Source: an uncultured Phycisphaerales bacterium (lineage in GTDB: Bacteria > Planctomycetota > Phycisphaerae > Tepidisphaerales > Tepidisphaeraceae). From it: a stretch of 64,000 nt of DNA. Position numbers and translations under genes: made by a program. The notes beneath the pieces are model-generated. The model saw only the letters and a list, made by a program, of their open reading frames with translations. It was not told the origin of the DNA and ran no database searches. Below, piece after piece: positions 7,974-45,761 of the stretch (positions are counted from its first letter, which is position 1; every line of letters begins with the position of its first letter). The stretch spans positions 29,187 to 93,186 of the forward strand of contig CAVWLP010000001.1 of the NCBI GenBank assembly GCA_963755915.1, in the 5' to 3' direction.

Positions 7974-10247
7974 CTACACCTTCCCCAAAATCGTCGAAGG
8001 CCGATTCTCCATCGGCATCGTCGTCACCCGCACACTGTGCGGCTCCTCCAGCCACAGCGCCGCGGTAATAATCCTCGGATAATACCGGCTCCCCTTCGCC
8101 TCCCCGCTGACGAACTGGTCCGAGCACGCCCAGTACCCGCTCCCATCCGTCTGCCAGCGAACGTGCGCCCCATCCGCCTTGCGCATGATCGCCGCCACGC
8201 GCGGGTCCGTCTGCTCCAGCCGCAGGATCGCACGGGCGACATACTGGAAGATGGCAATCTTGCTCATCCACGAGTTGCTCGAGGTGGACGACAGCTTGAT
8301 CCCCCCATCCGCAAACAAGTTCGCGGTCTCACGATCGGTCAGCAGCTTGACCGTATGCCGACGCAGCGCCGCGATCAGGTCTCCCTGAAGATGCCGCGCC
8401 AGCATTTCCGGCGCATCCCCTGCCGTAAGGATCGGCCACTGCCGAATCAAATCCAGCCAATACGCCGGATAAACCAGCGCCTCCGCCACGGGCAAAATCC
8501 TCGACGCATACCCCGGATTATTCTTCTCCAGCACCGCGGGAATGGCCCCATCCACAGCCGAATCCACCAGCGTCTGCGCCAGTTGATCCGCCAGACTCCC
8601 CAGCGGCTCCGCCGGCACGTCGCCCGCCACAATCCGCAGCCGCGACATCACCTCCAGCGCGATCCACGTCGCCCAGCACTTGGTACCCAGATAGGTATTC
8701 GCCCGCGCCTGCCCCAGCGATTCATCCAGCGAGTCATACGTGGTGATTTCCTTCCCATCCTCGCACCGCGAGCTGTCATGGGCCATCAGCCCGGTTCGCG
8801 GATTGGCCCGCGCCGCCATGCTCTGGGCGCACGCATCCAGCAGATGCTTGTTGGCCAGCATCCAGTCGATATCCCGCGTCGCCACGACATATGAAGCAGC
8901 CATCAGCACCCAATTACAAAGCTGCTCCTGCGTCATGTATGAGAAGCACCCCTTCAGATGCGCCAGCTCATAGCTGCTGTCGCCCGGCGGGGAAAAATTG
9001 TTGTTGATACCCATGTCATGACAAAACGAAATCCCCCCCGGCAGCAGCGCCGAGCGCGATTTCACCTGGTCGTGATAGCTATACCTTCGCGCCGCCAGCG
9101 AAAGAATATTCCGCACCGCCCACGGATTATATTTCAGCTCCCAGAACATCTGATCGACCGCCAAGTCGAGGGTGTTCATCATGCAGTATTCACCCTCGTT
9201 CACGATCCACACCGGCTCCCCGCCCACATCGAGCAGTTGCGTATTCCCGTAATATCCGCGCGTCCCCTGCGCGATCTGAAACTGCTGGTCTTCAGAAAGT
9301 CCCGAATCCATCAGCTTCGAATCCAGATCCGCCGCCGTCGCGCGAAGCTCGCCGGCGCGATCCAGCCCCGTCATCAGGACTTCGTCGAGATTTGTGTAAT
9401 AGCGGTTGTAGTAATACTGCCCTTCAAGCCCGGTAGTCGCGATGCCATCGAGATGTACGCCGATCGAAAGCACCAATGTTTTGCGGCACCCCGCCGGCAC
9501 TTCCATCGCCAGCCCCGCGCAAGTTCCCAGCGCATGCACCGAATTGATATCCGTCAGTCCCTCAGCTACCAGCCAGCGCTGAAGCGGAAAAAATTCCCCG
9601 CCGGCATTTGGAAAATCAGATTCGATGGTTCCCAGCACGCCCATGCTTCGCCGCCAGGCAAAGCCGATCTTCGTCTGACCCGGATCGTTGGACTCAAATT
9701 GCAAAATGCGCGCGCCGGGGTTGATGAAATCGATGGCAAAGACCCCGGTCTTGGTTTCCGTCCCCAGCCGGTTATCCACTTCAAGCGTTGCAACGACGCC
9801 CGGCAAGAGGCAGGCCTTCAGCGTTTCCGATTCGCCATTGGGCTCGGGAATTGGAAAAAAGGGTGAATAGATTGTGAACTTGAAATCAGGCGTCTGCCAG
9901 GTGTCGGTTGCCCACCCAAACGTGCGCCGAATTTCGCTGACTTTGTACGGCTGAAGCGAGTGATGCACCGGCGGCGCATGCTCTTCATTGACTTCGTAAG
10001 ATGAAGCCGGGTCGTGCAGCCCCGATCCCACCTTGAAAAACGGGAGGCAGCGGATGGGGTTAAACGACTTTTTTCCGCCGTGCTTCACACCGATGTAAAG
10101 GTTTTGATTGGCGGGCTTTCCGATTTCGACACCAATGCCGCCGGCGGTGTTGAAATGCCCGCAGGTAAAGCTCATGTACGCACCAATGGGCGCGTGCTGG
10201 GCGTTGAAGTTGATATTGCCCTGAAAGGGCAAGAGTTCACAAAACAC
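7974..10247 (-). CDS. GH52 beta-xylosidase
   Basis: FNAQHAPIGAYMSFTCG, WIVNEGEYCMMNTLDL, EITTYDSLDESLGQAR, LSSTSSNSWMSKI, GSRYYPR. Confidence 0.9.
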   Translation of the reverse strand: MFCELLPFQGNINFNAQHAPIGAYMSFTCGHFNTAGGIGVEIGKPANQNLYIGVKHGGKKSFNPIRCLPFFKVGSGLHDPASSYEVNEEHAPPVHHSLQPYKVSEIRRTFGWATDTWQTPDFKFTIYSPFFPIPEPNGESETLKACLLPGVVATLEVDNRLGTETKTGVFAIDFINPGARILQFESNDPGQTKIGFAWRRSMGVLGTIESDFPNAGGEFFPLQRWLVAEGLTDINSVHALGTCAGLAMEVPAGCRKTLVLSIGVHLDGIATTGLEGQYYYNRYYTNLDEVLMTGLDRAGELRATAADLDSKLMDSGLSEDQQFQIAQGTRGYYGNTQLLDVGGEPVWIVNEGEYCMMNTLDLAVDQMFWELKYNPWAVRNILSLAARRYSYHDQVKSRSALLPGGISFCHDMGINNNFSPPGDSSYELAHLKGCFSYMTQEQLCNWVLMAASYVVATRDIDWMLANKHLLDACAQSMAARANPRTGLMAHDSSRCEDGKEITTYDSLDESLGQARANTYLGTKCWATWIALEVMSRLRIVAGDVPAEPLGSLADQLAQTLVDSAVDGAIPAVLEKNNPGYASRILPVAEALVYPAYWLDLIRQWPILTAGDAPEMLARHLQGDLIAALRRHTVKLLTDRETANLFADGGIKLSSTSSNSWMSKIAIFQYVARAILRLEQTDPRVAAIMRKADGAHVRWQTDGSGYWACSDQFVSGEAKGSRYYPRIITAALWLEEPHSVRVTTMPMENRPSTILGKV

Positions 10248-43791: not shown

Positions 43792-43966
43792 GAATTTATG
43801 TTAGCGGGGGAAGATGATTTTTGTTTCGGGGATATGCATTACAAAACTTTACAGTCCGCAACAAAATGGATAAGATAGGTGGTTTGGGGTATTTATATTC
43901 GTGGGTTTTGACATTTATGGTCTACATATGCAGATACTGGATGGGTGCGCCATCGGTGTTCACTGG

Positions 43967-44028: not shown

Positions 44029-45761
44029 CTACGGTGAATGCGGCGTCGTGAGGGCCTCGTCGATCGTGCCAATGTACGAAAGTTTTTCCTCGGGGATGGA
44101 GTCGAACTGACCCTCCAGGATCATTCGGCAACCACGAATTGTTTCGCTCGTGGTAACAAACTTTCCCGGTCGGTGTGAATGCGGCTCAGCGACGAAGAAA
44201 GGCGTGGTCATGAACCGCTGCAGTTTGCGGGCGCGGGATACGAGTAATCGGTCGCCGGCATTCAATTGACTCATCCGGGTCTGCGCGAAGTCGCGGGAAC
44301 GACGCGCGGCGCGGTCTCTTTCCCTGCAGGCGATCAGTTCCAGCAGGACGGGGTCAATCATCAATTCCTTGGCCTGACGGAGTATTTCCCGTATTTGGCG
44401 GACAACGGACAGGTGCTCGGCGCCAAGATCGCCGTCGGACAAAATGGAACGTGAATGGTGGGGATCCACGGCGGGGTACAAGCCATCAACGGCCAGAAGA
44501 ATATTGGAATAAATCGCGGTATCGAATGCGGAAGACCTGGCAGCGTAATCAGCGTCAGTCGCGTGGTCGCTGAGTATCCAAAATGTTTGCAGGCCGCCAA
44601 CGACGTCTCCCGGGTAATCCTTTTCCTTGGTGAGCATGCCGCGCACGGAGTCGGGTTCCTGACGGTCCACCAAATACAAAATATTCAGGTGGGATGAGTT
44701 TGCTGGACCGCCCAGACGGCGCAGCAATTCCTCGACCAAAACAATGCGCCCGACACCCTGAATGCCGAAAAGCGCGACGTTGCCATCGGCCAGGAGCGGG
44801 CAAAACAGGTCGATGGGCTTGATACCGGTTTCAATGATCTGCCGGGTGGCGCCGTGCGCAGTCGAGCGGCGACGCGTTCCAAATCAGCATCGGAGACGGG
44901 CGAGACGCCGACGAATGGGGTCAGGGCGACGCCAACGGCGCCGGTGTTCATTACTTTCATACCTGGGGCAACATCCTGGATTTGACCCGTCGCGATACAG
45001 CGGACAAGCCCCTCATCGCGTCTCTGCATGACCTTCATCCGTTCGACGGCCTTTCCGGCGGTGTCTGCGATGACGAGCGCGTCAAAGAGGTCAGGAACCT
45101 GGTGGTGCTCGAAGCGCACGTCGACGAGGGGTCCGTCGACTGACATGACGGTGCCGACGACGAGGTCGGGACGCGGTGAGATGGGTTGTTGGCTGAGAGT
45201 GTTGGCAACCATTTTGGATAACTCCTCTTTCAATTTAAGACGAGCGGAGTGCAGGCGGTTGTCGATGGTGGTGATCGGCAGATTGAGAAACGCCGCCACA
45301 TCGCGACGCGAGCATTCATGCAGATAGAACAGCGAGATCGCTTCACGCTCCGGGGACGGCAGGCGATCGACCAGCGACAAAAGGAGCCGGCCATTTTCGC
45401 GGTTGGCGGCGTGATCTTCAGGTCCGATGTTGTCGGACCATGAATCAGCGGCCTGGGCCAGTGGTGCGAAGTCCTGATCGAGCTTGCGGAGGACCCGGTG
45501 GCATTGGTGGCGGACGATCGAGCGAAGCCATCCACCGAACGCCTCCGGGTCCTGCAATCCTGAAAGCGACAGGTATGCGGCGACGAAGGACTCCTGTACG
45601 GCATCTTGTGCCAAATGCAGATCGGGCAGGAAAGCCAGTGCCTGGGCCATGGCCGCGTCGCAGTATCGCTGCACCAGAATCGAGAATGCACTGGCATCGC
45701 CACTGGCGGCTGTCCGGACACACGCGGCAAGATCGAATGTTGCTTCAAAAGCCTGCGTCAT
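44029..45761 (-). CDS. ECF sigma factor fused to degenerate F1-ATP synthase beta-like domain (frameshift near 44850)
   Basis: Sigma2 AQDAVQESF..FGGWL and sigma4 REAISLFYL..TIDNRLHSAR, in frame with GTVMSVDGPLVDVRF; then in the shifted frame ETGIKPIDLFCP, GIQGVGRI, GLYPAVDP, RARKLQRFMTTPFFVAE, YIGTIDEA. Confidence 0.85.

Follow-up and report, generated by a model that had tools for sequence, protein, structure and literature searches.

We analysed a 64,000-nucleotide stretch of DNA (the window) from an uncultured soil planctomycete, a Phycisphaerales bacterium of the family Tepidisphaeraceae (GenBank assembly GCA_963755915.1, contig CAVWLP010000001.1). The gene at positions 44029-45761 on its minus strand codes for a sigma factor of the extracytoplasmic function (ECF) type fused to a C-terminal part derived from the beta subunit of F1-ATPase. 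The product is probably an accessory, one-component sigma factor of the ECF family (group 4) whose regulatory extension is a pseudo-enzyme of F1-ATPase beta origin. In the present assembly the gene lies in two frames. Its intact product would measure ~577 amino acids (aa), the length proposed in a preliminary description of this DNA and matched by the four closest homologues (575-577 aa).

Domain organisation of the fusion protein

The open reading frame (ORF) at 44685-45761 (minus strand, 358 aa) contains Sigma70_r2, Sigma70_r4_2 and ATP-synt_ab_N in one uninterrupted frame, as found with Pfam and as the preliminary description had stated for ECF regions 2 and 4 and the N-terminal part of F1 beta. 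That description had not named the strand. The sigma part looks intact, with the make-up of an ECF (group 4) sigma-70 factor: regions 2 and 4 score above the curated cut-offs and regions 1.1 and 3 are missing, no Sigma70_r3 or r1 family being matched at E <= 0.01 in the Pfam search of the gene product. The sigma part also matched the NCBIfam sigma70-ECF family TIGR02937 with 69.4 bits, above its cut-off of 42.9. Regions 2 and 4 are joined by a linker of ~30 aa, which has a low predicted local distance difference test score (pLDDT) in the AlphaFold2 (AF2) model of the intact homologue P0001.

The C-terminal extension follows the sigma core after a short linker and comprises ~380 aa, in which the only Pfam matches are ATP-synt_ab_N and ATP-synt_ab. 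The junction between the sigma core and the F1 beta-barrel is found at ~45150-45230, upstream of the frame break, so that the fusion is not created by the frameshift, as had been argued before. The second frame (44032-44883, minus strand) encodes 284 aa and ends with a stop codon at 44029-44031. All AtpD-like peptide blocks quoted earlier were found, in the order of AtpD. The second frame matched the NCBIfam atpD model TIGR01039 with E 4.4e-40, although its 137.8 bits remain below the cut-off of 462.85, such that the AtpD equivalog threshold is not reached. Both parents of the fusion were recovered when P0001 was searched against the PDB with phmmer, which returned F1 beta (1.5e-41) and SigW (3.4e-13).

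The beta-derived module is a predicted pseudo-enzyme

To compare the extension with a genuine beta subunit, we used the canonical AtpD of the same genome. Using the beta-like part as the query against the whole genome, we found the fusion gene on the window's contig and one canonical atpD on another contig (C2), confirming the expectation that a separate atpD exists. The encoded AtpD is 90-92% identical to 'Tepidisphaeraceae bacterium' proteins and 89% identical to that of Fontivita pretiosa, and contains GGAGLGKT, GERTREG, LLFIDNIFRF and DELSEED. The barrel, ETGIKPIDL, GLYPAVDP, GxEH, RARKLQRFMTTPFFVAE and the C-terminal helices are kept in the fusion protein. In its Walker A motif, GIQGVGRI, Arg stands in place of Lys and Ile in place of Thr; the GERTREG segment with the catalytic Glu is deleted together with ~95 residues, the Walker B strand among them; and DELSEED is exchanged for a hairpin that is ~17-21 residues longer. 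Having lost Lys and Thr of Walker A, the segment of the catalytic Glu, the Walker B strand and DELSEED, the module is by sequence comparison a pseudo-enzyme, predicted to be unable to hydrolyse ATP.

Degeneration of the P-loop is also seen across the family. Among 152 aligned P-loops, the Lys position is occupied by Lys in 61, by Arg in 53 and by other residues in 38; Thr or Ser is kept at the Mg position in 10, and a canonical GxxGxGK[ST] is found in one. The aromatic residue of GLYPAVDP and the phenylalanines of PFFVAE are nearly invariant. In the bovine F1 structure, these residues form the adenine pocket of beta. A consistently basic character of the hairpin that replaces DELSEED was considered and rejected: its mean net charge is +0.33 with a range from -5 to +5 (69 aligned members), compared with -4.96 in canonical AtpDs (n=112).

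The fold of the module was predicted with high confidence. The AF2 model of the 274-aa module (pLDDT 96.4, predicted TM-score (pTM) 0.93) forms a four-strand sheet and a helical bundle. Foldseek matched it to F1 beta chains at the listed ranks (E ~1e-17, TMq 0.65-0.69) except for ranks 29 and 34, where the matches were beta chains of a Mycoplasma G1-ATPase. The top Foldseek matches of the full-length P0001 model (pLDDT 79.6, pTM 0.65) were likewise F1 beta chains. Foldseek for both models, together with the Pfam barrel, points to the three-domain beta fold. Overall, the module resembles AtpD in its order of barrel, P-loop domain and C-terminal bundle, in the motifs ETGIKxIDL, GxYPAxDP, GxEH and RARKxxRFxxQPFxVAE and in the strength of its matches (Foldseek E ~1e-17 to 1e-20, in addition to the phmmer result). 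It differs from AtpD in the sigma fusion, in the ~95-residue deletion, in the loss of the catalytic residues and of DELSEED, in its location outside an atp operon and in scoring far under the TIGR01039 cut-off. The earlier idea of a repurposed F1-beta fold is upheld as to its origin and needs correction in that the fold is internally deleted and catalytically dead, and that the family also has a form with ankyrin repeats.

The beta proteins of the Mycoplasma mobile G1-ATPase (MMOB1670 family) provide another case of a beta-derived protein used outside ATP synthesis. The corresponding NCBIfam model NF045858 was matched with 3.6e-34, and PDB entry 9io5 was among the structure and phmmer matches. 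These proteins act as ATPases of a motor, whereas the present protein has lost the catalytic residues and is joined to a transcription factor.

Architecture and distribution of the family

A search of longer proteins with the beta-like part returned intact sigma/beta fusions with sigma Pfam domains for 13 of the 50 matches listed (501-586 aa, 38-79% identical), the remaining 37 being ordinary beta subunits or other beta fusions. We then searched a profile of the 13 fusions against 1.84 billion cluster representatives (50% identity) and analysed the best 150, every one of which is a family member with E <= 2.6e-74. These were sorted with ad hoc hidden Markov models (HMMs) of four modules, namely sigma, barrel, nucleotide-binding domain (NBD) and C-terminal part, and with an ankyrin HMM derived from five regions verified by Pfam. 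The arrangement sigma-barrel-NBD-C-terminal part, which the preliminary description had proposed to look for in other genomes, was found in 80 of the best 150 (74, and six with an ordering artefact). A second arrangement, in which ankyrin repeats take the place of the barrel, was found in 31 (29, and two with an ordering artefact). Another 13 have sigma, barrel and NBD, and 17 have other partial forms. Three proteins of 382-385 aa (P0137, P0157 and P0163) each have an N-terminal Met of their own and are without a sigma part; as possible stand-alone pseudo-beta proteins, they could stem from a split of the fusion or from truncated gene calls.

Pfam placed ankyrin repeats between sigma and ATP-synt_ab in all five long forms tested. 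The ankyrin form shares its type of ECF core and its dead, beta-derived C-terminal module with the present protein, which differs in having the F1 crown barrel where the ankyrin repeats sit. Ankyrin forms retain a Walker B-like strand, and the catalytic Glu segment is absent from them too; in the present gene the deletion within the P-loop domain is larger and takes in that strand.

The extension is conserved among the 13 homologues and among at least 111 representatives that are complete, and 36 of the 56 invariant columns in the alignment of the 13 sequences fall in the beta part. An ESM Atlas cluster of 139 members has sigma Pfam domains, carries the automatic name 'ATP synthase beta chain family' and has Thermomicrobiota as its commonest phylum. 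A full-length copy outside the phylum of the source genome was found in Rhodospirillales bacterium URHD0017, whose genome record is titled as an isolate, making bench testing feasible if the strain can be obtained. By these profile and sequence matches, the fusion is a conserved family reaching several phyla. Its members are currently annotated as 'sigma-70 family' only.

Within the phylum the distribution is patchy. The fusion was not detected in the 60 other relatives searched; one other genome (G057) gave a match of 1.3e-22 over query residues 94-279, presumably from its ordinary atpD. Matches extending into the beta part were obtained in three of 400 other sampled genomes of the phylum, with the fusion intact in two (G164 and G146) and its junction masked in the third (G182). 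In G182 (contig C141, ~8000-8060), a masked run of N separates the sigma part from the beta part, which is in another frame, so that fused and split genes are indistinguishable. A pattern search for the sigma region in genomes returned 79 ordinary ECF loci and one full-length fusion, and a family-specific degenerate pattern found in metagenomes only three short loci, ~50% identical and ending at contig ends.

Nine genomes of the phylum (L098-L106, L108 and L109) have a very similar sigma core, with E 1e-52 to 1e-66 over profile positions ~5-208. The open frames around these cores span 361-968 aa and gave no match to the beta part at E <= 1e-50 in the search of the sampled genomes. The pattern of matches suggests that one ECF core type has exchanged C-terminal extensions.

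A putative mode of regulation in cis

ECF factors with fused regulatory domains can be viewed as the 'one-component systems' of transcription initiation, and few types of extension have been studied. Casas-Pastor et al. 2021 (PMC7826278) describe 19 ECF groups with C-terminal extensions, typically without anti-sigma factors. Like the present gene, ECF41 (SnoaL-like), ECF42 (TPR) and ECF238/CorE (Cys-rich) combine a sigma-2/sigma-4 core with a fused C-terminal domain of >50 aa; an adjacent anti-sigma gene is typically missing in such groups, and no anti-sigma domain was detected by Pfam in the eight ORFs flanking the present gene. Unlike theirs, the present extension is a ~380-aa pseudo-F1-beta fold with no SnoaL, TPR or Cys-rich domain. 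No paper describing an ECF factor fused to an ATP-synthase beta-like domain was found in the literature searched, in line with the earlier statement that no characterised example was known. The terms 'ATP synthase' and 'ATPase' are absent from the main texts of Casas-Pastor et al. 2021 and of Pinto and da Fonseca 2020 (PMC7671368), and the main text of a 2022 review (PMC8999054) has no 'ATP synthase' and one unrelated mention of an AAA ATPase; the supplements of all three might tabulate such a Pfam match. The present fusion would add to the known extension types a large family with at least two architectures, in which the sensor is a pseudo-enzyme from the catalytic subunit of ATP synthase, an unusual recruitment of an F1 subunit into gene regulation.

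By analogy with ECF41, ECF42 and CorE-type factors, we infer that the extension may stand in for a separate anti-sigma factor and gate the sigma core in cis. Gating would proceed via binding of a ligand or a partner protein by the extension. The leading candidate ligand would be an adenine nucleotide, bound without hydrolysis, because the best-conserved motifs of the family are also those conserved in real beta, where they line the adenine pocket.

A specific form of this proposal, in which the dead beta pocket binds ATP, ADP or another phosphorylated ligand and its occupancy switches the sigma factor, would make the protein the first sigma factor to read energy charge directly via an ATP-synthase domain. 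That the hydrolysis-dead pocket still binds an adenine nucleotide is a tentative suggestion, and we consider energy sensing of this kind rather unlikely. The Gly-rich P-loop backbone GxxGxG[KR] is retained and the pocket aromatics noted above are nearly invariant, which speaks for such a sensor. On the other side, the Mg-coordinating Thr or Ser is gone in 142 of the 152 P-loops and the Lys in 91, ~95 residues of the NBD are deleted, and the retained motifs double as structural core. If energy charge is indeed what is read, the barrel and ankyrin forms would represent two ways to couple one sensor to a sigma core.

Alternatively, the pseudo-beta could bind F1 alpha or gamma, or take the position of beta, and so tether the sigma factor until the assembly or activity state of F1 releases it. 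Two elements of the alpha3beta3 ring, the crown barrel and the C-terminal bundle, are indeed retained in this subfamily. However, the Walker B strand is deleted with its neighbouring helices and loops, and the DELSEED loop, which contacts gamma and epsilon, is replaced or deleted. Ankyrin repeats occupy the barrel position in the 31 representatives mentioned above, and no linkage to atp genes was seen in the five loci examined. The deletions and the existence of a form without the barrel make docking on F1 less likely, and we regard it as very improbable.

Several observations weigh against the reading of the protein as a one-component sigma factor gated by its extension. Regulation in cis is argued from analogy, and the kept beta motifs are also core elements of the fold, so that their conservation need not imply nucleotide binding. 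The hairpin that replaces DELSEED is variable in the family, being lengthened here and deleted elsewhere, and nine of the best 150 representatives have barrel, NBD and C-terminal part without sigma and may be stand-alone forms or truncated gene calls. The metagenome contigs that restore the frame of the gene (see below) have a depth of 2-5 and come from one study, in which the source sample of the genome is possibly included. A complex prediction of the sigma core (residues 1-190) against the extension (residues 196-577) gave no verdict (score 0.00) and is no evidence either way.

Integrity and origin of the fusion

Alignment to the intact homologues identified the frame break as a -1 shift, with exactly one base missing within 14 nt between ...ARLR and ...RQIIETG. 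Logan contigs from four soil and sediment metagenome runs of a single study were aligned to the gene, and these place the missing base at 44853-44855, where an indel near 44850 had been noted before; no RNA run was found among those containing the stretch. One additional base is present there in all three runs with contigs over the site (X1, X3 and X4): X1 and X3 have T>G at 44855 and an inserted C, and X4 has a G inserted behind 44853. Both alleles restore ...ARLR(A/T)GATRQIIETG..., with the same length as the closest homologues, and the contigs have no other differences from the window over 1733 bases. The fusion gene is intact in natural populations. The T/C polymorphism at 44855 between runs corresponds to a Thr/Ala codon on the minus strand and adjoins the assembly gap.

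The source assembly is rich in indel errors. In rpoC (C2:4870723-4874979 of the source genome), the match was split into six pieces over four open frames, with at least five frame changes in ~4.3 kb, and a secA copy (C2:2913847-2917280) likewise fell into six pieces over four frames; frame breaks anywhere in the window are therefore to be distrusted. The assembly consists of three contigs with 81% marker completeness, compared with 59-66% in few-contig congeners and 86-93% in fragmented congeners. Given the extra base in every covering run and the error-rich assembly, the frame break of the fusion gene is very probably an assembly artefact. The preliminary description was thus right that the assembled sequence is broken; the break is most likely an assembly error and not a sign of decay. 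As the case illustrates, frameshifts in few-contig, long-read-like metagenome assemblies should not be taken for gene decay until the reads have been checked.

We also considered that this copy is a true pseudogene and the frameshift is present in the organism. The gap does exist in the assembled sequence, and the gene is accessory and missing from congeners. Against this, the contigs with the extra base are near-identical to the window elsewhere, apart from the break the two frames are open, with 77-89% identity to intact P0001, and the assembly breaks essential genes many times. A pseudogene is accordingly a most unlikely explanation.

Another possibility is neutral, fortuitous capture, in which a duplicated sigma-2/sigma-4 module landed before an atpD paralogue and gained an extension without function. 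Such a route to the diverse C-terminal extensions of planctomycetes is proposed by Pinto and da Fonseca 2020 (PMC7671368), who describe planctomycete ECF extensions as having poor conservation and more than one origin. The present gene resembles those described there in phylum, in a sigma core with varied long extensions and in a non-conserved genomic context; it differs in that its extension is conserved (the 36 of 56 invariant columns) and reaches other phyla. The nine genomes mentioned above, in which a closely similar sigma core came without a match to the beta part at E <= 1e-50 in the search of the sampled genomes, also fit this route. However, conservation of the extension holds across the family and across phyla, many residues being invariant, and argues for a function, and the AF2 model of the extension is very confident. 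Capture may fit the origin of the fusion and not its persistence, and as a full explanation we give it very little weight.

The fusion itself is hardly conceivable as the product of a chimeric assembly or of a programmed -1 ribosomal frameshift: beyond the frame break nothing speaks for either, the chimera is ruled out by contigs of three runs that bridge the sigma/barrel junction (~45150-45230, within the interval 45150-45300 proposed earlier for this check) and by intact fused homologues, and the programmed frameshift by single-frame intact homologues and same-strain contigs that are one base longer, no slippery heptamer being seen at the site in the gene sequence.

Genomic context

The gene is flanked on one side by PMT_2, an ORF without a Pfam match, a SpoU methylase and MoaC, and on the other by an NtrC-type activator and an alanine dehydrogenase (Pfam). 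No anti-sigma domain was detected by Pfam in the eight flanking ORFs, in line with the earlier statement; such domains are short and easily missed, and two of the ORFs gave no Pfam match at all. Neither homologous neighbours common to the five family loci examined nor linkage to atp genes in them was found. The earlier statement that the window holds no other atp genes stands for beta homologues, for which the fusion gene was the only hit on that contig; the search covered beta homologues only. An ECF-type promoter (GAAC-N15-19-CGT) was found upstream of one of four family genes, whose start codon is uncertain, and is not informative. FtsZ (TIGR00065) had no match in the source genome, which is 81% complete, and this fits a planctomycete; with the AtpD identities given above, it points to a host of the class Phycisphaerae. 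PSD1 (PF07587), a candidate planctomycete marker, was matched neither here nor in the control genomes and is uninformative.

In four of five genomes of the same genus, 80-168 bp separate moaC from the ntrC-type gene, with no fusion gene between them. The fifth and closest congener carries a different insert of ~5.3 kb between the two genes (G001:C3:1238104-1243438), and the moaC/ntrC-type spacer looks like a hotspot for accessory DNA. A 40-nt direct repeat with 93% identical copies brackets the gene together with 200 bp upstream (Table 1) and has ~5 copies in the genome. Absence from congeners, bracketing repeats, no anti-sigma domain and no shared neighbours together identify the fusion gene as an accessory, patchily distributed insertion for which no partner gene was detected.

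Table 1 Coordinates of the fusion gene, its domains and motifs, and the bracketing repeats in the window.
Feature	Position	Strand	Evidence
Whole fusion gene, ECF sigma / pseudo-F1-beta	44029..45761	-	Frames, Pfam/NCBIfam, homologues, metagenome contigs
Sigma region 2 (aa 29-94)	45480..45677	-	PF04542, E 7.8e-10, 38.8 bits vs cut-off 24
Sigma region 4.2 (aa 126-177)	45231..45386	-	PF08281, E 1.4e-10, 41.1 bits vs cut-off 25.7
'Crown' beta-barrel of F1 alpha/beta (N-terminal, aa 205-274), same frame as sigma	44940..45149	-	PF02874, E 1.7e-6, 28.9 bits vs 20.9; strands in AF2 model of P0001
One-base gap site breaking the frame; T/C polymorphism at 44855	44853..44855	-	Contigs X1, X3, X4; homologue alignment
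Predicted pseudo-F1-beta module: reduced four-strand P-loop domain and C-terminal helical bundle, 274 aa	44032..44853	-	AF2, Foldseek, TIGR01039
Degenerate Walker A, GIQGVGRI vs AtpD GGAGLGKT	44743..44766	-	Alignment
GLYPAVDP motif, kept from F1 beta	44461..44484	-	Alignment
Longer helical hairpin in place of acidic DELSEED loop	44239..44355	-	Alignment; helices in AF2 model
RARKLQRFMTTPFFVAE motif, kept from F1 beta	44185..44235	-	Alignment, PDB phmmer
40-nt direct repeat D1 copy 1, 23 nt past stop codon	43967..44006	+	Repeat search; ~5 genome copies
Second copy of 40-nt direct repeat D1 (93% identical), 200 nt upstream of start codon	45962..46001	+	Repeat search

A second element of ~30 nt lies in the downstream spacer (~43835-43870) and has ~19 copies in the genome. 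The closest congener likewise has scattered short repeats of a similar kind.

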